In this document: in pieces, positions 2,414-45,150 of the stretch
How positions within the stretch are numbered: the stretch's first letter is position 1
How the letters are laid out: each line of letters begins with the position of its first letter
Assembly: GCA_965649215.1 (NCBI GenBank)
Contig: CBFGJZ010000002.1
Span: 9,150 to 56,333 of the forward strand
Source: a candidate division WOR-3 bacterium
GTDB taxonomy: Bacteria > Hydrothermota > Tepidihabitantia > Tepidihabitantales > CAIPLT01
Length of the DNA stretch: 47,184 nt
Direction: 5' to 3'
Position numbers and translations under genes: made by a program
Notes under the pieces: model-generated
Database searches by the model: none
The model's input: the letters and a program-made list of their open reading frames with translations, nothing else
Told to the model about the DNA's origin: nothing

Positions 2414-4327
2414 ATGAACATCACACCTGATCAAATCCGTAAAATGAATATTGGAGAACTTAGCCAATTAGCAAAGCAGATCCGACAAAGGATTATTGAA
2501 GTCGTAACAAAACGAGGAGGTCATTTAGCGCCCAGTTTAGGGGTTGTTGAATTGACTTTAGCACTTCATTATGTGTTTGATACACCTAAAGATAAGATTA
2601 TTTGGGATGTTGGCCATCAAGCCTACGCTCATAAATTAATAACTGGTCGTTGGCATCAATTTGAGACTTTAAGAACAGATCAGGGTATTTCGGGTTTTCC
2701 AAAGCGTTCAGAAAGCCCGTATGATGTTTTTGATAGTGGCCATTCAGGTAATTCTATCTCGGTCGCATTAGGTATTACTTCAGCAGCAAAACTAAAAGGT
2801 GAAGAATTAAAAAGTATTGCGGTGATCGGTGACGGTTCTATTGTCAGTGGTATGGCATTTGAAGCACTTAATTACGCTGGTGATAGTCATCAAAATTTAA
2901 TTGTTGTGTTAAATGACAACGAAATGTCAATCGCGAAAAGTACCGGCGCAATGGCCAAATATTTTAGTCGAATGATTACGGGTCGGATGTATAATAGATT
3001 AAAAGCTGATACTTGGAAATTGCTCGGTATCTTACCAAAGAAACTGAGTTATAAGACCCGTCGTGCTGCTCGTAAACTTGAAGAGGGATTAAAAAATTTA
3101 ATTGCACCATCTATAATTTTTGAAGAGCTTGGCTTTCGTTATTTTGGTCCTTTTGATGGCCACGATTTAGGATTGTTAATAGAGACTTTTAAACGTATTA
3201 AAAATATTAAAGGACCTATTTTAGTGCATGTCGTAACCAAAAAAGGTAAAGGATACCTACCCGCAGAAGAAAATCCTGAATTATATCATGGTATATCGCC
3301 AATAGTGAAGCCCAATAACGGTGTAAATAGTCTCAATGGGATTTCTTGTCAAAACAACCGCAATTGCAGCGATATTTTTGGTGAGACATTGATTGCTTTG
3401 GCTGAAAAAGATCAACGGGTCTGCGCAATATCTGCAGGAATGTGTTTAGGAACAGGCCTTGCCGTTTTTAAGAAAAAATTTCCTGATCGATTTTTTGATG
3501 TTGGTATTTGCGAGCAACACGCGGTGACATTTGCCGCAGGTTTAGCAATGAGTGGCTTAAGACCATTTGTCGCAATCTACTCAACTTTTTTAGCACGGGC
3601 ATATGATCAAATCATTCAGGATGTTGCCTTACAAAATCTACCCGTCGTTTTTGCGATCGATCGAGCAGGGATTGTTGGCGAAGATGGACCGACTCATCAT
3701 GGTAACTTTGATATTTCTTACTTACGAATAATTCCGAATATGATAATTGCGGCACCAAAAGATAATGACGAACTAACCAATATGCTCAAATTAAGCATTC
3801 ATAGCAACGCTCCATTTGCGATTCGCTATCCCCGGGGTTCGCTTACAAATATTAATTATCCCAATCAAGATAATTCGTTGCAAATTGGATGTAGCGAGAT
3901 ATTATTAGAACATCACAATCCCAATAATAAAAAAAGAGGAAAATTGATTGTTTTGGCAGTCGGTTCAATGGTTGCCAATAGTTATCAAGCAGTACGAGAC
4001 ATTATAAGTAATGCAAACTACCCGAATCAATCAATTGTTTTGGTTAATATACGATTTATAAAACCATTAGATGAAAATTTATTACATAATTTAATAGCCA
4101 ATGACGATATTGTTATTACGGTTGAAGAAAATGCAATTAAAGGTGGTTTTGGTTCATCTGTTATGGAGTTTTTAGCAGATAAGGCGATTACTCCGAAAAA
4201 ACATATTATGATTGGTTTAGTTGATAAGTTCATTGAACAGGGTAGTCGGGAAATTTTACTTGACCGATATGGACTTTCAAAGGTAAAATTACAGCAAACA
4301 ATATGGGCTGCATTAAGTCAAGAATAA
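2414..4327 (+). CDS. dxs: 1-deoxy-D-xylulose-5-phosphate synthase
   Basis: GGHLAPSLG, WDVGHQAYAHK, TPP motif IGDGS...LNDNEMSI, DVGICEQHAV, DRAGIVGEDGPTHHG. Confidence 0.97.
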   Translation: MNITPDQIRKMNIGELSQLAKQIRQRIIEVVTKRGGHLAPSLGVVELTLALHYVFDTPKDKIIWDVGHQAYAHKLITGRWHQFETLRTDQGISGFPKRSESPYDVFDSGHSGNSISVALGITSAAKLKGEELKSIAVIGDGSIVSGMAFEALNYAGDSHQNLIVVLNDNEMSIAKSTGAMAKYFSRMITGRMYNRLKADTWKLLGILPKKLSYKTRRAARKLEEGLKNLIAPSIIFEELGFRYFGPFDGHDLGLLIETFKRIKNIKGPILVHVVTKKGKGYLPAEENPELYHGISPIVKPNNGVNSLNGISCQNNRNCSDIFGETLIALAEKDQRVCAISAGMCLGTGLAVFKKKFPDRFFDVGICEQHAVTFAAGLAMSGLRPFVAIYSTFLARAYDQIIQDVALQNLPVVFAIDRAGIVGEDGPTHHGNFDISYLRIIPNMIIAAPKDNDELTNMLKLSIHSNAPFAIRYPRGSLTNINYPNQDNSLQIGCSEILLEHHNPNNKKRGKLIVLAVGSMVANSYQAVRDIISNANYPNQSIVLVNIRFIKPLDENLLHNLIANDDIVITVEENAIKGGFGSSVMEFLADKAITPKKHIMIGLVDKFIEQGSREILLDRYGLSKVKLQQTIWAALSQE

Positions 4328-7300
4328 TGAAGGGTATTTATAAATTAATTTTTTGTTTTATTAGCATATCATCTTTTACAATACCTGTTTTTGCTCAAAA
4401 CAGTTTCTTGTCATATAATGATTCATTATTTCTGGATTCTTTAGATATAAATTCATCTAACGAAGTCGACAGTATCCTTCCTTTATTATACTTAAGACAA
4501 AACCAATATCCATTCTTTATTGATCGTTTACAAATCAAGGAGCGGATTGACTATGAAAACGGGTTTGTTTTTTATGAAATCTATCAAAATGGTGTTTATA
4601 GTGGTATATTGGAAATCGTTCCCTTAAGTGATTACTTCAAGCGGACAATATACAAAGAACTATTAACAAAAAGTAAAGAACAAAGCCAAAGAAAAGCAGT
4701 TACCTCATCCCAACCGTTTGACCGGATGGGGTTAATTCCTGATATCGAATTACCAAGAGTACCTCTTTTAGGAGAAGGTAGTCGGATTAATATTTCAGGG
4801 CAAGATAAAATTACTTTTGGTGGTCGTCAAACTTTTACCGAAGGATTTACTCAAACAACCACTCCACCGAGAATGTTTCCTGAATTAAAAATGGATCAAC
4901 AATTGAAAGTGAAATTGGATGGTACAATTGGAGAACGTACTAAAGTCCTAATTGATCATGATTCAGAAAGGGATTTAGCAGGTCGTAACACAGTTAAACT
5001 TTCATACACAGGTACTGAAGATGATATATTACAAAATTTAGAATTTGGAGATACTCGTTTAATAATTCCTAGTACCGCTTATACAGGTGATTTACCTTCT
5101 CGTAAAGGTCTCTTCGGTGTTTCCAGTAAAGCAAAGATAGGAGGTGTTGATTTATATGCAATTGCTTCTCGTGAAGAATCGCAGGGTGAGACTAAAGAGT
5201 TCCGTGGTCAGACCCGCTTAATTTATGATACGATATACGATGTTGAATTTTTAAGAAGGATCTTTTTTTCAATTGGCGAACCGCCTTCGGCGCGAGTGAC
5301 CGATTTAAAGGTATATGTTAAAGATGGAAGTGTAATGGGTGAGTCAGCGATTGCCACTGTATTATTAAATGCTCCTAATGATACACCTCCATATCGTTAT
5401 GACCGAGAAATCGGTTTCTTTTCTTTACGAACCCGTAATCAAGATTATGTTTTTCACGAAGATGGCAATGTAATTGAATTTATTAGAAATATTCCTGCTA
5501 ATACGCATGCAGTTGCAGTCAGTTATGTTGTTGGAAATGACACGGTAGGGGGTCTTAAAGTACTTCAAGGTGATACTAACTTAGTATTAAAGTTAATCAA
5601 ACCAAGTCGTGAGGATACACTTTCCGCATGTTGGCAATATGAATTAAAAAATGTCTATTCACTTGGTAATCGGGATGTACGGATTGAAGACATTAAAATT
5701 TTAAGATATGAGCAAGGTATCGATCCCACCAATTATAAAGAATATGAAACTGATGGTCCAACGGCAGGAAGAACATTCTTAAAATTGCTTGGATTAGATC
5801 CTGATAATAACGGAAAAGTTGAATGGCCCCAATTTGATGCTTCTCGCGGTTATTTAATCTTTCCCTTTGCAAGGCCTTTTGCAATTGAATCACTATCCAT
5901 CCAAAATCGTATTATCTATTATAAAAATTATCCATCCGTCATTGAAGATAAAAAATATTTAATTGTATTGAGCTATATTACATCACGCGGAACTTTTAAT
6001 TTAGGGCAATTTGATATTGAAGAAGGTTCAGAAAAGGTTTATGTCAATAATCAACTCCAGAGTAGCGACGATTACGAAATTAATTATTTAACAGGAGAGT
6101 TGAAATTTAAGAAACCATTGCCACCCAATGCGGATGTAAGAGTTTCTTATGAATATCGTCCTTTATTTTCTATCTCTCAAAAATCCCTGATGGGAACACG
6201 AGGTGAATGGAAATTTGGTAATAACGGTAAAATCGGTTCAAGTATTTTTTATCGTCAAGAAGCAACGCCTGAAGCAAGCTCAAAGGCGACTTTAGGTTCA
6301 GAGCCATTCCAACGACTTATTGCCGAGACGGATATTTCCTATAGTGAACGGCCTGAATTTTTAACCGATTGGTTAAATCAAATTCCACTCCTTAATACAC
6401 AAGGTCAAGCATCGATATCATTTTCTACCGAAGGGGCATTATCTTTACCAAATCCTAATACACGAGGTATTATTTATTTAGATGATTTTGAAAAAACGAC
6501 TATTACGCAGGATGTTTTATTAAGAGGTTTGGTATGGCAGTTTGGTTCAAAACCTGCAAATCGAGACATAGCAACTTTTGCTCGTGAGCGCATTTTTTGG
6601 TATAATCCAACAACCCGCATCAGAAAAGATTCAATATTTGGTAGTGGTATTGGTGAAGAGGGGAAGGATTTAGTTGATTATCTGAGAATTCAGTATATCC
6701 CTGACAGTGAAACTTCCTGGGCTGGGATTATGACTTGTGTTTCTCAGTCGGGCTGGAATCTTAAAGATATAGAAAATTTAGAAGTGGTATTTAGGCATAG
6801 TCAAAATAATAATCCCCAGAAGAATGGTAAAATTCATTTCACATTAGCAACCAGTATTGATGAAGATATTCCTCGACGAACTAAATCAGGTGAATTAGTG
6901 GGTTATAACAATCAACATGACACTGAAGATAAAAATGGTAATGGTATTTTGGATGATGGTCTTGGTGAAGATGTCGGTTTAGATGGTGTTGGAGGGCGTG
7001 ATGCAGATAATGTTTTGGGTGACGATGGTAATGATGATTATGATGCTTATATAAATCCAATTGGCACTGAAGGAAATCGTCGATTGGATGACGAAGATAT
7101 CGATGGTAACGGTTTCGCTCGTAACAATGATTATTTTGAATATACCATCAATCTAACAGATAGTGTATATTTTACAACTTTAGCAAATAATTGGAAAATG
7201 CTTCGTCTGCCTTTAAATGATTCACTATTAAAAAACGATAGCTCAAAGTATCGCTTTGAAGGTCTTCCCAGTTGGGAGAACATTCGTATTGTGAGAATTT

Positions 7301-9927
7301 GGTTTTCTGATTTTACTTTCAGTGATACTTTTGATATTTATTCACTTAGTTTTGTTGGTTCAAGGTGGCGGAGTGCAAAGGTTATTAAAGCGGATTCTCT
7401 AAGTATACCTTCCGATAGTGTGGAAAGGTTTGAAAAGGTGAGAGTTACTTTAATAAGTCAAAAGACCGATCCAAATTATTATTCTCCATTTGAATTAAAA
7501 AGAGATGCAAGCGGTCGTTTAGAATATGAAGCAGCATTAGCATTTAGTTATGATAGCATTAAGAGTGGACATCGAGGGATTGCGGTGAAAACTAATTTTC
7601 AGAAAGAAGACTATCGGGATTATAGCACCATTAAAATTTATTTGCATAATGATAATAACGATCCTTATTTCTTTTTTAGATTTGGTGGTGATTCCTTAAA
7701 TTATTATGAGTATTGTAATCAAATATCAAAAGGAACCGCGGTGGCAGGATATAATGATTGGTATGAGTTTGAGATAATTCTTGATACAATAATAAAAATT
7801 AAGACCCAAAAAGTTGGCAGAGAAACTGTCGTTGGAAATTATCGAGTTTATGGTAATCCTTCAATTGCCGATATTCGTTATCAAGCATTGGGCATTGAGA
7901 ATCGAAGTGGAGATTTAATTTCGGGTAGTGTTTGGTTTAATGATATCCGTTTGAGCGATGTGCGCGCTGAAATGGGTTATGGGTGGACATCGAATGTTGC
8001 TTTGAGTTTAGCAGATTTCGCTTCAATTGGTATAAATCTGAATTTCTCAGATCCTAATTTTCGCCGTTTCAGTGAAGGTCGTGGCGTTAAAACGGGTGGG
8101 TTTGGTCGTAATATGGGTGTTAATGCACGAGTTGCGTTGGATAAATTTTTGCCACCTTCATGGGGTGTTTCGATTCCGATTTCTTATCGTCGTACTAATA
8201 ATCGTACCTTACCCAAATATGCTGCCAATTTTTCCGATTATCGATTGAATCCCACTGAAGCGGAAGAGCAATCACAGAGTTCTTATGATGAACAATGGTC
8301 TTTAAATAATTTATCGAAACGGAAAAGTAATAATAAGATTTTTAATTACACGATTGAAGCTTTTACTTATTCCATGGGAGAACGCAAATCTCAAAATCTT
8401 ACTTATACAAATGTGGATACTTCTTTTTCATCTTTTAAGAGTCTTGACTATGCGATTGATCCGGACATAAAAATTAGTATTTTTGATAATGATGTTTATT
8501 TATTTCCTAATAACATTCGAGCAGGTATTGATATTTCTAATAGTCGTAATGCTCGTTATAGTAGATATCGTGATACCTTAAGTAATCGTGATACAACACG
8601 GTTAATTCGGATTGATTCATTGAGAAATATCGATATGAGCCTTGATTTAGAATATTCCCCTCTTGATGACTTTACAATTACCTATGGTCGTCAAGCAACT
8701 CGTGACCTAATTTTTTCTGCGCCAGGTGTAACACGGGATACATTATTATTAGGATTTCGGGCCGGGGTTGAGACAGATTGCGATGAGAACTTTGGGGCTG
8801 AATATGAATTTGAAATCAGCGACTATTTAAGACCACGGATTAGTTTTGATGAGTCATATAACGAAATTAGGCCGAAACGACAAGGTGTTTATGATGAATA
8901 TCGCAATTTTGATAATAATACAACTATTGATTTTTCAACTGACTTTGATTTACCCGCCGTATTATCTTCTTTGAGTGAATTAGGCAATGGTAATAATAAG
9001 GTTATGAATAGTCTTGCTAATATCTTGCAAGAAGTGAGTTTTTCTTATACCCGTGATTACTCTCGCCAATACCAGACGGTCTCAAAGCGGCCACCATTTT
9101 TATTCCGACTTGGGTTAAATGATGCATTTATTTTAGATACGATAAATTATCCTGAACGTCCACAGATTAATCGTAATAGATCCGACGATTTATCAATATC
9201 AAGTGGAGCCCGTCTCAAAGATATTTCTATAAATGGTCGGTTTGCCAAGAGTTGGGATAGGCAGTTCTTTACTTATGATGTGAATGGTCTTTATGCGACT
9301 ACCTGGCCAGATATCAATGTCAGTATTGGTCGCATTGAAAAATTATTGTTAGGTTTAGCCACAAGTTCTGATATTTCATTTGGATATAAGCAAGAAAACC
9401 GCCAATCTGGTACAATCATCCACGATACTTTTCGTCTTGATGGTTTGAGAAGAACTACTAATATCAATTATTCGCCGTTAGTTTCTTGGCGGACAACTTG
9501 GAAGAAAAGACTTTCTACTAATTTATCAACAAACTTCTCTAAGTCTAAAGAAGAGATACGATTAAGTCAAGGGTCGAACATTATCGAAACCAATCAACAA
9601 GGTGCAAACCTGTCAGTATCCTATGCTTTTTCAGCACCCCAAGGGATACCACTGCCATTCTTAAAAGGTATCAAATTATCATCGGATTTAAATCTCTCGT
9701 TAAATCTGCGATATAATAAAAACTACACCTTGAATATTCCTTATCTTGCTGATACGACCTATTTACGAAATGATCAAAATTTGGGTACGGATTTAGCAGC
9801 TTCTTATCGGATTTCAAATAGCATTGAATCAGGTGTCACAACTGGTTATTCTAATTATACTGATTTACAACGGGGGCGGAAGACAAGAAATGTTGATTTA
9901 AATTTCTGGGTTCTATTTAAATTTTAA
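4327..9927 (+). CDS. sprA: SprA/Sov-like very large outer-membrane beta-barrel protein (T9SS translocon-like)
   Basis: ~1866 aa if started at ATG 4327, which overlaps the dxs stop (TAATG) and gives a signal-peptide-like N-terminus; the ORF track starts at 4303. Recalled SprA-like segments: KLSYTGTEDDILQNLEFG, IEEGSEKVYVN, DYEINYLTGEL, YLDDFE, EDKNGNG, VWFNDIRL. C-terminal Phe. Confidence 0.75.
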   Translation: MKGIYKLIFCFISISSFTIPVFAQNSFLSYNDSLFLDSLDINSSNEVDSILPLLYLRQNQYPFFIDRLQIKERIDYENGFVFYEIYQNGVYSGILEIVPLSDYFKRTIYKELLTKSKEQSQRKAVTSSQPFDRMGLIPDIELPRVPLLGEGSRINISGQDKITFGGRQTFTEGFTQTTTPPRMFPELKMDQQLKVKLDGTIGERTKVLIDHDSERDLAGRNTVKLSYTGTEDDILQNLEFGDTRLIIPSTAYTGDLPSRKGLFGVSSKAKIGGVDLYAIASREESQGETKEFRGQTRLIYDTIYDVEFLRRIFFSIGEPPSARVTDLKVYVKDGSVMGESAIATVLLNAPNDTPPYRYDREIGFFSLRTRNQDYVFHEDGNVIEFIRNIPANTHAVAVSYVVGNDTVGGLKVLQGDTNLVLKLIKPSREDTLSACWQYELKNVYSLGNRDVRIEDIKILRYEQGIDPTNYKEYETDGPTAGRTFLKLLGLDPDNNGKVEWPQFDASRGYLIFPFARPFAIESLSIQNRIIYYKNYPSVIEDKKYLIVLSYITSRGTFNLGQFDIEEGSEKVYVNNQLQSSDDYEINYLTGELKFKKPLPPNADVRVSYEYRPLFSISQKSLMGTRGEWKFGNNGKIGSSIFYRQEATPEASSKATLGSEPFQRLIAETDISYSERPEFLTDWLNQIPLLNTQGQASISFSTEGALSLPNPNTRGIIYLDDFEKTTITQDVLLRGLVWQFGSKPANRDIATFARERIFWYNPTTRIRKDSIFGSGIGEEGKDLVDYLRIQYIPDSETSWAGIMTCVSQSGWNLKDIENLEVVFRHSQNNNPQKNGKIHFTLATSIDEDIPRRTKSGELVGYNNQHDTEDKNGNGILDDGLGEDVGLDGVGGRDADNVLGDDGNDDYDAYINPIGTEGNRRLDDEDIDGNGFARNNDYFEYTINLTDSVYFTTLANNWKMLRLPLNDSLLKNDSSKYRFEGLPSWENIRIVRIWFSDFTFSDTFDIYSLSFVGSRWRSAKVIKADSLSIPSDSVERFEKVRVTLISQKTDPNYYSPFELKRDASGRLEYEAALAFSYDSIKSGHRGIAVKTNFQKEDYRDYSTIKIYLHNDNNDPYFFFRFGGDSLNYYEYCNQISKGTAVAGYNDWYEFEIILDTIIKIKTQKVGRETVVGNYRVYGNPSIADIRYQALGIENRSGDLISGSVWFNDIRLSDVRAEMGYGWTSNVALSLADFASIGINLNFSDPNFRRFSEGRGVKTGGFGRNMGVNARVALDKFLPPSWGVSIPISYRRTNNRTLPKYAANFSDYRLNPTEAEEQSQSSYDEQWSLNNLSKRKSNNKIFNYTIEAFTYSMGERKSQNLTYTNVDTSFSSFKSLDYAIDPDIKISIFDNDVYLFPNNIRAGIDISNSRNARYSRYRDTLSNRDTTRLIRIDSLRNIDMSLDLEYSPLDDFTITYGRQATRDLIFSAPGVTRDTLLLGFRAGVETDCDENFGAEYEFEISDYLRPRISFDESYNEIRPKRQGVYDEYRNFDNNTTIDFSTDFDLPAVLSSLSELGNGNNKVMNSLANILQEVSFSYTRDYSRQYQTVSKRPPFLFRLGLNDAFILDTINYPERPQINRNRSDDLSISSGARLKDISINGRFAKSWDRQFFTYDVNGLYATTWPDINVSIGRIEKLLLGLATSSDISFGYKQENRQSGTIIHDTFRLDGLRRTTNINYSPLVSWRTTWKKRLSTNLSTNFSKSKEEIRLSQGSNIIETNQQGANLSVSYAFSAPQGIPLPFLKGIKLSSDLNLSLNLRYNKNYTLNIPYLADTTYLRNDQNLGTDLAASYRISNSIESGVTTGYSNYTDLQRGRKTRNVDLNFWVLFKF

Positions 9928-9951: not shown

Positions 9952-10341
9952 ATGAATGCTAAAGAAAAAACAGTAGTAATTTTTTTAATTGTGAGTTTAC
10001 TGATTGGCAGTTGTATTTCGTTATGGAAAAATTATCAACTTAAAAAAGATTATCAAAAATTAAGCGTGTCAGCGGTATATGAAGCAAAAGAAGAAGCAAT
10101 AAGCTCTGAGACGACATTACCAAAATCAAACAATTTAACTCTAACCGACTTAATTAATATTAACACCGCATCAAAATCAGAATTAGAACAATTAGTTGGC
10201 ATTGGACCAGTGTTAGCCCAGCGCATTATTGACTATCGTAATGAACATAATGGTTTTAAAACTAAAGAAGAGATAATGAAAGTTTCGGGTATTGGTGTAA
10301 AGAAATTTGCCGCCATTAAAGATAAAATTATTATTCATTAA
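9952..10341 (+). CDS. comEA: ComEA-family helix-hairpin-helix DNA-binding protein
   Basis: N-terminal TM helix, then ININTASKSELEQLVGIGPVLAQRIIDYR...VSGIG (HhH pair). Confidence 0.88.
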   Translation: MNAKEKTVVIFLIVSLLIGSCISLWKNYQLKKDYQKLSVSAVYEAKEEAISSETTLPKSNNLTLTDLININTASKSELEQLVGIGPVLAQRIIDYRNEHNGFKTKEEIMKVSGIGVKKFAAIKDKIIIH

Positions 10342-12619: not shown

Positions 12620-13054
12620 ATGAAAGAAAAAAATCGTTTACGATTATTGTTTGTATTATTATTTAGCAGTGTGATTATTGCGTTAGGATTAATTTCAGTT
12701 ATTGTTGCAATGTCAATGACTATTAAACAATTACGACAAGAAAATAAAATGCAGAACGATAAAATTTGGACTTTACAGCAAAAAGTTGATAGTTTAATTC
12801 CTGTCTATACTGAAAAACAAGAGAAGATAATTAAGACGATTGTCGGTAATCCTGATATTAAAAAACTAATTAAAAGTAAAGCAGTGTTAGGTGGCAATTG
12901 GGGTGTGTGGTCAGAAAAGAATATTAAGTTTATTACAGAAGACCGATTCTTGGCAATCTTTGACGACGGTCATTTAATGGGGGCAATGATTATTCGCGCC
13001 ATAAATCCTGACGATATTAAAACTTGGAAAGTGTTGTGGAGTACGGTCTTTTAA
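12620..13054 (+). CDS. Hypothetical membrane-anchored protein
   Basis: 144-aa ORF with SD-like AAAGGT, an N-terminal TM helix, a coiled-coil-like stretch and a C-terminal AVLGG...FDDGH segment. Confidence 0.75.
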   Translation: MKEKNRLRLLFVLLFSSVIIALGLISVIVAMSMTIKQLRQENKMQNDKIWTLQQKVDSLIPVYTEKQEKIIKTIVGNPDIKKLIKSKAVLGGNWGVWSEKNIKFITEDRFLAIFDDGHLMGAMIIRAINPDDIKTWKVLWSTVF

Positions 13055-13204
13055 GAATGTCAATACAAAATAATTTATCATAAAATAAATGTTTTGTGAA
13101 AATAATTATAATTCTCGTTGGTGGGATAAGAGTAAAATAAAGTTATTGGGTCAAACAAATCTTTAATTGTCAGACAGATTAATAGTTTTGAGCCAGGAGT
13201 CGGC

Positions 13205-13432
13205 GTAATCTAATTGGTTGTCTTCCTCATAATCATTTAGATTACTCTTGAGGCGGTGCTTTTAGCAGTCTTATGGGTTATCCTTTCGGTTGTCCTCTGG
13301 ATGACCCGTCGGATATCCCAGGGGATAGCCCCCAGGTTAACCTTTTCGACTACCGAATCGGCAAAACTCTCGGTTGCTAAATAGGTTGCCGAATATATAA
13401 CCTATTGAATTGGATAATAGACGACAGCCAAA
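13205..13432. repeat. 12-bp-period array, copy 1: 19 in-phase units of degenerate palindrome GRYNRYC plus variable 5-nt spacer
   Basis: Units from 13205: gtaatctaattg gttgtcttcctc ataatcatttag attactcttgag gcggtgctttta gcagtcttatgg gttatcctttcg gttgtcctctgg atgacccgtcgg atatcccagggg atagcccccagg ttaaccttttcg actaccgaatcg gcaaaactctcg gttgctaaatag gttgccgaatat ataacctattga attggataatag acgacagccaaa. Hand counts: pos1 purine 18/19, pos2 pyrimidine 19/19, pos4 purine 18/19, pos5 pyrimidine 17/19, pos6 C 13/19, pos12 G 14/19. Confidence 0.85.
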
Positions 13433-13531
13433 CAGGTCAGGTAAAGTTATGGTTTGAAAATTTAAGTGGATATCAAAAATATCATGTATTATTTGAGGGA
13501 TATTTTAATATAATTATTTTACTGACTTCAT

Positions 13532-14022
13532 TTATTCCCTTAGATGTTCTAATATTTGCAGTATTCTAAAAAAAGGATTACCTTCATCATTTGTTCTTTT
13601 ACTTGCTTCTTCTTTTAACTCATTAATGCAATTAGTATAATGTTTATTTATTATTAATTGTAGGTTACTAATTTTATTGAGGTTTGCGTAATATAACCTT
13701 CAGGAACTACTGGTGACCAAAACATAAAAATATGATTCTGGAAATAAGCGAGGTGTTTTCTTGCGTATTCAATTTGTTTTTTATGTTTTCTTTTTATCTT
13801 ATCTACTGTGGTTTTATTATTATTATAAAGTACACCTCTTATGTGAGTAGTAACCTCACAAAGATAAGCAATTTTATTTCTGAAATCTAATCCAATCACA
13901 TCTATTTCGTCTAGCCCTTTTACACCTCCTCCTGGAGGTCTTACATTGTAATCAACAAAATCACACTTTTTAATTATTTTTAGATATGCTCCAACAATAT
14001 ATTCTCCAATATCTGTTTTCAT
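13532..14022 (-). pseudogene. PD-(D/E)xK-like (restriction-endonuclease-fold) protein with a 1-nt frameshift
   Basis: ORF 14022-13654 carries E...EIDVIG...LCEVTT. Restoring one A at ~13683 (minus-strand CAAACC) continues the frame as NLNKISNLQLIINKHYTNCINELKEEASKRTNDEGNPFFRILQILEHLRE to a TAA ending at 13532 (163 aa in total). Confidence 0.7.
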
Positions 14023-14049: not shown

Positions 14050-15582
14050 TTATTCCCACTCCATTGTTGCGGGTGGTTTATTTGAGATATCATAGACAAC
14101 CCGATTAACTTCGCTGATTTCATTGGTAATTCGGGTTGAGATTTTCTCTAAAATCTCATACGGAATTTTGACAAAGTTGGCAGTCATTGCATCTTTTGAT
14201 TCGATAATCCTTATCACAATCGGATATTTGTAACTCCTCGCATCACCCTGAATCCCGACGCTTTTAATCGGCAAGAGCACGGCAAATGCCATCCAAACTC
14301 TCTCATATAATCCGACTTTTTTTAATTCCTGTTCAATAATATAACTTGCTTTGCGCACAATCTCAGCTTTTTCTTTGGTTACTTCGCCAACGATTCTAAT
14401 CGCTAAACCAGGACCAGGAAAGACATGTCGTTTGATAATTTCGTCTGAAAGTCCGATTTGTCTGGCGATTTTTCTCACTTCATCTTTATACAGGTTTTTT
14501 AACGGCTCAAATACTTCTAAATACATATTTTTCGGTAGACCGCCAACATTATGATGGGATTTTATGATTGAGGAGTGTTGAGTAATCCCACTTTCAATTC
14601 GATCTGAATAAATTGTACCTTGAATCAAAACTTCTGCTTTTTCCTTTATTGCGACTTCATCAAATACATCAATAAACAATTTACCAATAATCTTGCGTTT
14701 CTTTTCTGGTTCAACAACTCCTTTTAATGCCTTAAAAAATTTATCTGACGCATCAACGATTTTTAAGTTAAGATTGAATTTGGTGAAAACCTTTTTTATA
14801 AACTCAGTTTCTTGATATCTCATTAGACCAGTATCAACATAGACTGCGACTAAATTTTTACCAATCACTTCTTTCACCAAAACTGCCGCAGTAGATGAAT
14901 CAACTCCACCTGATAAACCAATCACCGCTTTTCTATTACCGATGACATCTTTAATTTCTTGTTTAATATTATGAATAACCCGTGAAGTATCCCACTCTCT
15001 TTTTGCCCGGCAAATATCAAAGACAAAGTTTTTTAATACTTGGAGACCGTTTTCCGTATGTGTAACTTCAGGATGAAACTGCACACCGTAAATTTTATTC
15101 TTGTTATCTTCAAACGCGGCGATTGGCGAATTTTTAGTCTTAGCAACAACTGAATAGTTTGATGGTAATTTTTTCACAATATCTTTATGATTCATCCACA
15201 CTAATGCTTTGTTATTTTTGCTTAAACCTTTTAAAATCTTGCTTGATCTTTTTATTATTAGTTCAGTTATGCCATATTCACCAGCTGTACCCGATAAAAC
15301 TTTACCTTTATCAAGATATGCAATTAATTGATGACCATAGCAAATACCGAGAATGGGAACCTGTAATTTAAAAATTTCTTTGTCGCACTTAGGAGATGAT
15401 TTGTCATAAACCGAGGCTGCGCCACCTGAAAGAATAATACCTTTTAGGTTTGGGATGTTTAATAATTCGTCTTTTGTGATGGAGGCAGGTTTAACTTCAG
15501 AATATACGCTTAAATCTCTGATTCTTCTTGAAATCAGATGGCAATATTGACCGCCAAAATCAATTACGATTATTTTATCCAT
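14050..15582 (-). CDS. guaA: GMP synthase (glutamine-hydrolysing)
   Basis: IDFGGQY, ILGICYGHQ, QFHPEV, SGGVDS, IKSHHNVGG, FPGPGLAIR, KPPATMEWE. ATG at 15582 preferred over TTG at 15594. Confidence 0.97.
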   Translation of the reverse strand: MDKIIVIDFGGQYCHLISRRIRDLSVYSEVKPASITKDELLNIPNLKGIILSGGAASVYDKSSPKCDKEIFKLQVPILGICYGHQLIAYLDKGKVLSGTAGEYGITELIIKRSSKILKGLSKNNKALVWMNHKDIVKKLPSNYSVVAKTKNSPIAAFEDNKNKIYGVQFHPEVTHTENGLQVLKNFVFDICRAKREWDTSRVIHNIKQEIKDVIGNRKAVIGLSGGVDSSTAAVLVKEVIGKNLVAVYVDTGLMRYQETEFIKKVFTKFNLNLKIVDASDKFFKALKGVVEPEKKRKIIGKLFIDVFDEVAIKEKAEVLIQGTIYSDRIESGITQHSSIIKSHHNVGGLPKNMYLEVFEPLKNLYKDEVRKIARQIGLSDEIIKRHVFPGPGLAIRIVGEVTKEKAEIVRKASYIIEQELKKVGLYERVWMAFAVLLPIKSVGIQGDARSYKYPIVIRIIESKDAMTANFVKIPYEILEKISTRITNEISEVNRVVYDISNKPPATMEWE

Positions 15583-15612
15583 GATTAGTGACAAACGGTC
15601 ATTACTTAAATA

Positions 15613-35517: not shown

Positions 35518-35590
35518 AGCGGGTGACGGGAGTCGAACCCGCGGCCTCAAGCTTGGGAAGCTTGCGCTCTACCAGATGAGCTACACCCGC
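35518..35590 (-). tRNA. tRNA-Gly (anticodon CCC); CCA not encoded
   Basis: Minus strand GCGGGTGTAGCTCATCTGGTAGAGCGCAAGCTTCCCAAGCTTGAGGCCGCGGGTTCGACTCCCGTCACCCGCT: acceptor stem GCGGGTG/CACCCGC, anticodon loop TTCCCAA, T-loop TTCGACT. Confidence 0.97.
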
Positions 35591-35790: not shown

Positions 35791-35994
35791 TTGACCTACA
35801 AAACAACTTAGCAGGTTATCCGTTACGTCACATAGTAGGTTGCCGATTAGGTAGCCCCCTGGCTCACCTAGAAAGTAAACTTTTATGTTACCTACTCCAT
35901 TATAAAATAACTAAGTTACCCCATTACTGATTATGTTACTAAGTGGATTATCTATTAAATTGTCTACTATATTACCAAGATAATCACCTCTTAG
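35791..35994. repeat. 12-bp-period array, copy 2: 17 in-phase units, same motif as 13205-13432
   Basis: Units from 35791: ttgacctacaaa acaacttagcag gttatccgttac gtcacatagtag gttgccgattag gtagccccctgg ctcacctagaaa gtaaacttttat gttacctactcc attataaaataa ctaagttacccc attactgattat gttactaagtgg attatctattaa attgtctactat attaccaagata atcacctcttag. Hand counts: pos1 purine 14/17, pos2 T 16/17, pos4 purine 17/17, pos5 pyrimidine 15/17, pos6 pyrimidine 15/17. Decayed units may extend left to ~35690. Confidence 0.82.
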
Positions 35995-36087
35995 GTCTAT
36001 CGCGCCCGTGAGTTGAAAATTTATTTGTAAACCAAATTAAAGAAATATACTTAACCTTAACAAATTTTCATAGATATTGATAATATC

Positions 36088-44400: not shown

Positions 44401-45140
44401 TAAGACTGAAAATGATAATGTTGTGAATATAATTTTACATTTTCCAAATGATAAAATAAGTAATTTTGAATCAGTTCTAATGTTTGTCTACTAATATTAA
44501 AAGAAATACTTTTGGAAATTGGGTGGTTAAGTAAATAAGAGATTGATTTAATATGATTAAGTCCATTAATTGCCTGGCAATCTGGATGTTTTTTACAATT
44601 ACAAATCACACCCCCCAATTTAATGCTGAAAGCAGCAATTTTTTCACTGCTGCAGATAAGGCATTTGTTTAATTCAGGTTTATAGCCAAGCAAATTAGCT
44701 GTTTTTAGGTAAAAAGCACCAATAAACGCATTATAGTTGGTTTGTTTTCTTGCTGGAGATTGGTTAAGGATTCGCAAACTGCTAAGGAGCAAATCAAATA
44801 TTTTCGGATTAGGATCTTCAAGATCACTTGAGCGTAAAATCAGTTCACAAATTTCATTAGCATAATAAAATTTTTCTAAGTTGGTTAGCGATGTAAATGA
44901 TTCAAGTAAGGATGCAGTTGATAAAGTATAGATAGATTTTAATTCTTTTTTATAAAAGATAATTTCAGCGAGAGAAAATAATTCTAAAGCAGCACCAAAT
45001 TTACTTTTGGGATTACGGGCACCTTTGGCAAGGAGATTGATTTTGCCATGGTGTTGAGTGTAATAAGTAAGTAATTTACTTGTTTGTCGAATTGATTGGG
45101 AATTAAGGCAGATACCGATTGTTTTAATTATTTTCGGCAT
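44400..45140 (-). CDS. recO: DNA repair protein RecO
   Basis: OB-fold N-terminus (SKLLTYYT..GKINLLAKGARNPKSKF), LGYKPEL, Zn finger CLIC...CNCK. Confidence 0.9.
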   Translation of the reverse strand: MPKIIKTIGICLNSQSIRQTSKLLTYYTQHHGKINLLAKGARNPKSKFGAALELFSLAEIIFYKKELKSIYTLSTASLLESFTSLTNLEKFYYANEICELILRSSDLEDPNPKIFDLLLSSLRILNQSPARKQTNYNAFIGAFYLKTANLLGYKPELNKCLICSSEKIAAFSIKLGGVICNCKKHPDCQAINGLNHIKSISYLLNHPISKSISFNISRQTLELIQNYLFYHLENVKLYSQHYHFQS

Positions 45141-45150
45141 TGTTAAGACA

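Follow-up and report, generated by a model that had tools for sequence, protein, structure and literature searches.

A lineage-restricted family of intergenic, exactly phased and dyad-symmetric 12-bp arrays, tentatively read as rows of protein-binding sites on duplex DNA

The stretch of 47,184 nucleotides analysed here (the window; C2:9150-56333) comes from a 1.64-Mb genome in 39 contigs (35% GC, 95.1% complete) and contains, at 13205-13432, a row of 19 units of 12 bp in exact phase. This row is one of about 27 in the genome, and together they make up a family of interspersed, strictly intergenic, exactly phased and dyad-symmetric 12-bp arrays that is restricted to one lineage; as a descriptive finding this is secure. 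The membership of the window array in a dispersed, lineage-restricted family was not visible to the first-pass annotation, which had picked out the array from the letters of the window. The family is without a described counterpart in the open-access literature: a search of the main texts of open-access papers and bioRxiv preprints brought up no account of prokaryotic intergenic arrays phased at 12 nt or 12 bp. Its architecture is crystal-like, with a 12-bp phase, two dyad axes per unit and a GC core grading to AT flanks, and it is kept while the sequence turns over. Judging from these patterns in the DNA, we tentatively read each array as a putative row of sites at which a symmetric protein would bind duplex DNA, a reading to which we would give somewhat less than an even chance.

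The array and the parts of it that are referred to below are the following.

13205..13432, no strand assigned: array copy 1, 19 units of 12 bp in exact phase, 17 of them conforming to the family (period-12 information, profile, dyad r)
13265..13360, no strand assigned: GC-rich array core, units 6-13, up to 53% GC with surroundings of about 30% (composition profile)
13287..13336, no strand assigned: central inverted repeat and potential hairpin, centre 13308-13311 (MFE and centroid folds of the + strand)

When 13205-13432 was cut into 12-mers, the total column information was 6.43 bits, compared with 1.31 +/- 0.33 bits in 500 dinucleotide-preserving shuffles (z=15.7), none of which reached the observed value. 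Periods 5-20 were scanned, and the runners-up, 6 (z=8.1) and 8 (z=6.7), were not close to 12. With a unit profile made from the 21 other arrays of the genome, the window array being left out, 17 of the 19 units passed the 95th percentile of the contig and 14 of them also the 99th; the two that failed the profile start at 13253 and 13421, and all five flanking units (two before and three after the array) stayed below the 95th percentile. The first-pass annotation was thus correct in its coordinates, its 19 units and its 12-nt phase, and the column conservation that it proposed is not matched by shuffled DNA. Its hand count of 99 G or C in 228 nt (43.4%) is exact, and the block is richer than its surroundings, as it had said, with 100-nt windows reaching 53% GC in the array and 21-30% in the flanks; all nine of the 7-mers that it listed were located at unit junctions. 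The best-scoring six-unit stretch is the 72 nt at 13265-13336. Tandem Repeats Finder (TRF) reported just two copies, at 13372-13395, and missed the array otherwise, because the units are mutually only about 42-46% identical, and no exact repeat of at least 40 nt was found within the window. Over 13149-13378 and 13349-13814 the sequence is reproduced, free of differences and indels, by independent contigs from a public DNA run. The only run listed for the locus is labelled as a hot-spring metagenome; no RNA run is listed for it, and an RNA run from the same study gave no contig there, which carries no information on expression.

A BLAST search with the window array turned up another locus in this genome, as well as loci in two relatives. 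The four loci have a period-12 peak in common, which reaches 0.37-0.57 bits per column, whereas periods 8-15 other than 12 stay at 0.07-0.22. Scanning the genome with a phased profile gave 22 loci with scores of 28.6-54.4 over six units (in an eight-unit version of the scan, the genome-wide 99.99th percentile was 26), and further searches added five, which brings the number of arrays to about 27. One of them lies in the window itself, next to a tRNA gene.

~35791..35996, no strand assigned: second phased array of the family, beside tRNA-Gly(CCC) (phased-profile scan and profile R1)
35518-35590, minus strand: tRNA-Gly(CCC), the sole Rfam match in the window

The phased-profile scan placed this second array at C2:44940-45059, and R1, a sequence-only profile built from 22 in-register segments, placed it at C2:44942-45011, 44982-45039 and 45091-45145 (a window coordinate is the C2 coordinate minus 9149). 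The arrays have 7-19 units each in the genome of the window (G000) and 7 to about 23 across the family. Most of them are AT-rich with one GC-rich core unit pair, the window copy representing a GC-richer variety, and family-wide the G+C per unit is 6-7.6 at the core and about 4-4.5 three units away.

In the pooled profile the unit has two dyad axes, one through a conserved core of 7 bp and one through a weaker linker of 5 bp, and these two axes give rise to a secondary period-6 signal. The profile of 254 pooled units correlates with its own reverse complement at r=0.989, with mirror frequencies of 0.72 for G at position 12 and 0.72 for C at position 6, and of 0.76 for T at position 2 and 0.75 for A at position 4. 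Since pooling both orientations could itself create such symmetry, the arrays were also tested singly; the mean r was 0.76, and for 22 of 22 arrays at most 1% of the column-permuted nulls reached the observed value. For the window array alone the correlation is r=0.80, a value attained by 0 of 500 column-permuted nulls, and the strand symmetry seen in the first pass is therefore real inside a single array. With a core of 7 bp and about 4 bits per unit, the specificity is weak, which counts against the binding-site reading. Units that stand next to each other agree at 5.53 of 12 positions and units of different arrays at 5.04, a difference that has disappeared at lag 4; the units appear to be old, each held to the profile individually, rather than fresh products of slippage. 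At their ends the arrays fade into the flanks and have no defined terminal repeats.

All 27 arrays are intergenic, in a genome of which about 89.5% is coding, and they prefer the 3' ends of genes. Among the 22 arrays that lie within called gaps, 8 are in convergent, 13 in tandem and 1 in divergent gaps, while all 225 gaps of at least 250 nt comprise 37 convergent, 138 tandem and 50 divergent ones (Fisher p=0.037 for convergent and p=0.054 for divergent gaps); these enrichments are modest, and the copies, being related by descent, are not independent data points. The gap that holds the window array is convergent, and the genes around it are as follows.

12620..13054, plus strand: upstream neighbour, 144-aa ORF with its 3' end toward the array (ORF list)
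13654..14022, minus strand: downstream neighbour, 122-aa ORF with its 3' end toward the array (ORF list)
14050..15594, minus strand: guaA (GMP synthase), synteny anchor for the array of the relative G001 (Pfam GATase and GMP_synt_C)

The 144-aa ORF has no Pfam match and a weak, sub-threshold FtsL-like match in NCBIfam, and the 122-aa ORF has no match in Pfam or NCBIfam. For 20 arrays of the genome the flanking ORFs, 39 in all, were identified; they are housekeeping genes with no relation to one another, or else large T9SS cargo genes, and no transposase, other mobility gene or partition-type domain was found among them. A match to the T9SS protein SprA places the organism in the FCB group. One paralogous family of Kelch/T9SS-cargo genes adjoins 8 of the 27 array loci, usually at the 3' end of the gene, so that some of the spread may be co-duplication; the copies at C22 and C3 have 96.6% identity over 465 nt, which likewise suggests co-duplication with neighbouring genes. 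A gene for a TdeIII-type restriction endonuclease adjoins one array. Moreover, 6 of 23 arrays lie beyond a strong intrinsic terminator of the upstream gene (dG -16 to -21.5 kcal/mol), which stands between the upstream stop codon and the array at C3, C9, C15, C17, C24 and C31; no terminator-like site was found in 12900-13800 of the window.

The window array has a syntenic counterpart at locus L009 of G001, where the C-terminus of GuaA lies at L009 1-87 and is 100% identical over 23 aa. Over about 17 units the two arrays can be aligned without gaps or a change of register, about half of their positions being identical, while a MAFFT alignment places several indels in the flanks, and part of the window array is also alignable by BLAST.

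13305..13418, no strand assigned: 3' part of the array, BLAST-alignable with the syntenic array of G001 (73% identity over 114 nt)

In each unit the outer G and C have stayed the same between G000 and G001, but in several central units the four bases that they enclose have been exchanged for others. In addition, the array upstream of glyS is found at the syntenic site in all three genomes that keep the gene order, which belong to two genera, and it is heavily diverged yet in phase, with one small register shift in G004. The array downstream of the AdoHcyase gene was found in G000 only, one of six genomes examined, and in an empty-site comparison the genomes without the glyS or AdoHcyase arrays lack synteny or reach a contig break there. 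Preserved phase between orthologs supports the view that the phase is probably under constraint while the sequence turns over, and the ungapped guaA-linked pair supports selection on the spacing.

In relatives, the arrays were searched for with a three-unit pattern allowing at most one mismatch, which recovers 18 of the 22 arrays and has 0 matches in a shuffled genome. It matched 57 times in G000, 55 times in G003, 38 times in G011 and 57 times in G053 (4, 1, 4 and 1 times, respectively, for the reversed-pattern control), 0-1 times in each of four congeners of G053, with 0 in three of them, and 0 times in six of six genomes of family f5. A match was found in 52 of the 66 genomes of the order, a figure that overstates the spread of the window type, as the survey mixes array types and the reversed-pattern control is nonzero in many genomes. 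In a named genome collection a three-unit pattern gave, among the matches listed, apparent single chance matches in high-GC genomes. Profile R1, at E up to 1e-6, matched in 8 of 132 genomes of the class, with matches in six of nine genomes of family f1, one of two of f3, none of 44 of f2 and none of 66 from other orders, and at phylum level it matched in 5 of 151 sampled genomes, all of f1. The window array type was found only in two families of one order. With full scoring and E up to 0.01, R1 gave 116 matches in G011, 33 in G003, 7 in G062, 4 in G053 and 0 in G038, the last of which has 64 pattern matches yet none to the G000-type profile. The arrays of G011 reach about 22 units. In G062 there are 23-unit arrays of 60% GC, covered by no ORF of at least 100 aa, whose direct-repeat unit is different and still fits the purine/pyrimidine consensus of the first pass (GRYNRYC); the 12-nt spacing thus recurs with different unit sequences. 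The copies in G003 are 82-87% identical over 320-1020 nt and lie in ORF-free gaps of 1-1.4 kb, often near contig ends; the idea that they mark the start of a multi-copy gene was rejected, since no ORF longer than 52 aa is present in the 831-nt loci.

From the letters alone, DNA shape, protein binding and base-pairing had been proposed side by side as the object of selection; binding or shape on the duplex fits better, and the pairing tests speak against specific base-pairing. That the arrays work as structured RNA we regard as unlikely. A read-through transcript, or one from a promoter of the array itself, would fold into GC-clamped 8-bp helices with 4-nt loops and linkers (2 x 12 nt) and might act as a REP-like mRNA stabiliser, a bidirectional terminator or a protein sponge. 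Such a role would suit a block rich in GC within the AT-rich genome of an organism sampled from a hot spring, and the window array does fold better than shuffles on both strands (z=-2.8 and -2.5), as do one array of G011 (z=-3.7) and a G062 array considered as a possible hairpin-free case (z=-2.6 and -3.3). At 3 of the 17 predicted pairs of the central hairpin, both sides have changed between G000 and G001 with complementarity kept. Furthermore, the arrays lie downstream of genes, and for 11 of the 13 arrays in tandem gaps it is the gene-sense strand that folds better, as against 56% of 160 control gaps (p=0.013). However, this folding asymmetry tracks the GC skew of the chromosome (rho=-0.59), the skew being 0.125 in arrays and 0.103 in other intergenic DNA (p=0.39), and a strand-specific RNA signal was rejected because ordinary GC skew accounts for the asymmetry. 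Nor is the pairing specific to a copy or to the order of units: arms match their own partners at 15.8 of 36 positions and the arms of other copies, set in a common register, at 15.6 of 36; adjacent units fold no better than GC-matched chimeras (p=0.32); and permutation of the unit order gives a mean z of -0.9, with 19 of 22 arrays below 0 and just two below -2 (-1.46 for the window array and -0.26 for the 'long hairpin' of G011). The folding signal is thus neither strand-specific nor order-specific. The six arrays beyond strong terminators, and the region around the window array with no terminator-like site, also speak against an RNA element, as does Rfam, where the whole window at the gathering score of release 15 returned tRNA-Gly alone, a search of 13000-13700 at E up to 10 gave best values of E=1.8-9.2, far under gathering, and four G003 loci gave 0 matches. 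An RNA would moreover leave unexplained the exact 12-nt phase far into AT-rich flanks that are incapable of stable helices. Specific base-pairing is accordingly disfavoured, with some contribution of hairpins, as RNA or single-stranded DNA, being possible. A coding or decayed coding tetrapeptide repeat (12 nt being four codons) is extremely improbable. Read on either strand, the unit consensus has one frame of four codons with no stop, so that stop-to-stop stretches of 37-95 codons overlap all 22 arrays, and six arrays have a similar repetitive peptide in common. Against this, the window copy has stops in six frames, and among the six shared frames four are without ATG, one is without any start codon and in two the first start comes at codon 34 or 52. 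The most conserved unit column of the window array (0.97 bits) is the would-be third position of the first codon, no third-position relaxation is seen, the changes between orthologs would be overwhelmingly non-synonymous, and the same frame is open on both strands of arrays that never lie inside a gene. The first-pass statement that the block holds no ORF of 60 aa or more stands for frames with a start codon (the largest has 42 aa) and not for stop-to-stop frames, one of which, of 62 codons, overlaps it; the more general view that the constraint is other than coding is upheld.

A TIGR-like or CRISPR-like guide-RNA array is hardly credible. What speaks for it is the short-period tandem form with conserved and variable positions, and in the part of the TIGR account drawn on here, TIGR repeats of 8-12 nt are pseudo-two-fold symmetric and bind a symmetric protein dimer (PMC12045711). 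Unlike the arrays, those described there have a 36-nt unit with two alternating repeats and two 9-12-nt spacers, stand adjacent to a Nop-domain tas gene and act as RNA (PMC12045711). The present arrays have a single 12-nt unit with about five loosely variable positions, no alternating repeats with 9-12-nt spacers and no long direct repeats, and they are dispersed over 27 loci with unrelated neighbours. No Nop-domain neighbour was found among the 39 flanking ORFs and no match to PF01798 in G000, where a divergent Tas could escape the Pfam model, and the window has no TRF row of the CRISPR type (repeats of 25-36 nt with spacers of similar size). It is also very improbable that the arrays are clustered targets of a DNA methyltransferase or restriction-modification system acting at the palindromic 7-bp core. 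As a short palindrome with an interruption, the core has a form typical of recognition sites, and one array has the TdeIII-type endonuclease gene beside it; recognition sites, however, require neither 12-bp phasing nor a symmetric linker, and the inner core bases have been replaced wholesale in the G001 ortholog with the phase kept. More serious, if still rather unlikely in our estimate, is a selfish or neutral interspersed repeat without host function, which would have spread by some mechanism and by co-duplication with neighbouring genes, would persist only where it is harmless, as in spacers at the 3' ends of genes, and would owe its phase and symmetry to slippage by unit length and to template switching at quasi-palindromes. 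The exclusively intergenic placement and the avoidance of divergent gaps look as if only harmless insertions persist, and the T9SS-cargo paralogs beside the arrays, the C22/C3 pair and the AdoHcyase-downstream array of a single genome point the same way. The patchy copy number among congeners and the recent proliferation in some genomes, with copies in G003 and G011 that are nearly identical or stand at contig ends, are the main arguments against a host function; they make a picture seen more typically in selfish repeats that proliferate than under a conserved function. However, the units within an array are barely more alike than those of different arrays, so that recent slippage is not maintaining them; the orthologs have lost about half of their bases and kept phase, profile and symmetry; and the arrays have no association with a transposase or RAYT and no terminal repeats at their fading ends. 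Host use and selfish spread are not mutually exclusive.

Binding sites on duplex DNA are the reading that best fits the strand symmetry, the phase kept without specific pairing, the constraint acting on each unit and the placement outside transcripts. A pattern of this kind is hard to maintain without something that measures 12 bp, for which a protein lattice on the DNA would be the obvious candidate. We infer from this a binding protein, its symmetric nature and a role for the complex. Each unit would be the site of a symmetric (dimeric) protein, which may nucleate on the GC-rich core and then extend cooperatively in 12-bp steps, so that successive dimers would spiral round the helix as in plasmid centromere-iteron complexes. 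The outcome would be a nucleoprotein block in the spacers between transcription units, which could serve as a roadblock, an insulator, or a topological or organising site. A wider form of the binding-site reading, which is possible though doubtful, is that the arrays are the DNA half of a new chromosomal system, in which a small symmetric protein would polymerise in 12-bp steps on dozens of dispersed arrays. Such filaments might insulate transcription units or organise the chromosome of these thermophilic bacteria of the FCB group, and the system would be a multi-locus chromosomal counterpart of the plasmid complexes. If the unit sequence and the specificity of the protein co-evolve between lineages, this could account for the wholesale change of units in G001 and for the different unit in family f2.

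Bacterial genomes commonly carry interspersed extragenic repeats, which are built of single hairpins and for the most part have no settled function. Rickettsia palindromic elements and MITEs are interspersed, palindromic, non-autonomous repeats, as are the arrays. The array unit has a length that is a multiple of three and is stop-free on both strands, and could in principle be tolerated within genes, whereas none of the 27 arrays is inside one. The arrays, whose boundaries are poorly resolved, showed neither terminal inverted repeats nor target duplications, and no cognate transposase came to light. Among plasmid centromeres, tubC of pBtoxis uses 12-bp repeats and parC of R1 uses 11-bp repeats. 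In the part of the account of ParR-parC and TubR-tubC centromeres drawn on here, the sites consist of short direct or inverted repeats at fixed spacing with high- and low-affinity parts, and the small dimeric centromere-iteron proteins bind cooperatively and spread into a filament or a ring (PMC6009700). The arrays are likewise tandem short units at fixed spacing; the parC and tubC iterons, however, form a single locus per replicon, on a plasmid or prophage, beside their own partition operon with its centromere-binding protein and NTPase, while the arrays occupy about 27 chromosomal loci with no adjacent par-type genes, and so appear not to be centromere iterons in spite of what seems a similar architecture.

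REP elements and BIMEs, as far as the cited account describes them, are imperfect stem-loop palindromes of 20-40 bp with an unpaired GTAG or CGTC end tag, their partners mostly separated by variable spacers of 20-100 bp, often with a linked RAYT, the CGTC class being without a dedicated transposase (PMC3733652). According to the same part of that source, REPs lie mainly between unidirectional or convergent genes, downstream of coding regions, and their abundance varies sharply among related genomes (PMC3733652). The arrays resemble the REPs described there as short, palindromic, extragenic, multicopy repeats in tandem and convergent gaps, with clustered units and uneven abundance, and differ in having a unit of 12 bp in up to 19-23 copies, in exact phase and with zero variation in spacers. 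The tetranucleotide CGTC stands at the centre of the inverted repeat in the window and is not an end tag. The RAYT family (Y1 transposase, PF01797) has 0 matches in the array-rich genomes G000, G003, G004, G011 and G053, and it occurs in 28 of the 66 genomes of the order, unrelated to the array counts. The arrays are therefore not REP/BIME elements, and the resemblance is in genomic behaviour only.

The arrays break short-read assemblies and escape the standard tandem-repeat and RNA-family tools. If they are selfish, they are an unusual repeat that keeps phase and symmetry without fresh duplication. If the binding-site reading is true, the existence of close relatives with and without arrays would make the protein findable by phylogenetic profiling or DNA-affinity capture, and the arrays would be a workable starting point for studying a new nucleoid-associated or boundary system in a thermophilic lineage on which little work has been done.

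In the window's own genome (G000), 8 of the 27 arrays have as a neighbour a member of one paralogous gene family, whose large protein products carry Kelch repeats and a T9SS C-terminal sorting domain; in most cases the 3' end of the gene points towards the array. One array has a restriction gene immediately upstream of it. These neighbours, by contig (C) of G000, are:

C15:10436-15564, Kelch/T9SS paralog
C3:66182-71297, Kelch/T9SS paralog
C1:681-3035, Kelch/T9SS paralog
C5:70962-73295, Kelch/T9SS paralog
C8:38372-40339, Kelch/T9SS paralog
C9:19332-21785, Kelch/T9SS paralog
C2:138842-140353, Kelch/T9SS paralog
C28:3-515, Kelch/T9SS paralog
C30:8769-9560 (2070-2861 of extracted locus L181), TdeIII-type type II restriction endonuclease gene

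The window itself holds a second array, in a gap of the tandem type that follows a long gene on the minus strand:

35791-35996, phased 12-mer array of an AT-rich variety
35518-35590, minus strand, tRNA-Gly(CCC), about 200 nt from this array

Genome-wide, G000 has a strong replication-type GC skew (about +/-0.1 in 30-kb neighbourhoods), the size of which is sufficient to bias strand-versus-strand comparisons of RNA folds.

In G003, another genome of the same order, a composite non-coding repeat, up to about 1 kb long, has the array as its core and contains tandem modules of about 110 nt each; these repeats frequently lie at contig ends. The copies, which are 82-87% identical to one another and have no ORF in any of the four loci, are:

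L036, 3146-4161
L037, 3507-4014
L038, 3506-4151
L039, 3030-4099

By far the most arrays are found in G011, of the same order, with 116 matches (E up to 0.01) to the sequence-only profile built from 22 in-register array segments. Many of them are no more than a few hundred bases away from the end of a contig (for example C112:270, C129:95, C27:143 and C75:346 of G011). Evidently the arrays break the short-read assembly, and the true copy numbers are therefore underestimated.

The arrays of G062, again of this order, share the 12-nt spacing with the window array but differ in the unit, which is a direct repeat and not palindromic. One frame is without stops in both members of this near-identical pair, and a 373-aa ORF follows immediately downstream:

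L206, 1400-1675, 23 units, 60% GC
L202, 200-520, 23 units, 60% GC

The window also encodes a homolog of a T9SS translocon component, followed by a second gene:

4303-9927, SprA/Sov T9SS translocon homolog, 1874 aa (TIGR04189, E=3.6e-131)
9952-10341, ComEA-like helix-hairpin-helix protein

Despite its T9SS genes, the lineage seems to make no use of the Bacteroidia-type promoter, because a canonical sigma-70-type -35/-10 promoter upstream of glyS is conserved in five genomes (extracted loci L179, L189, L190, L191 and L192).
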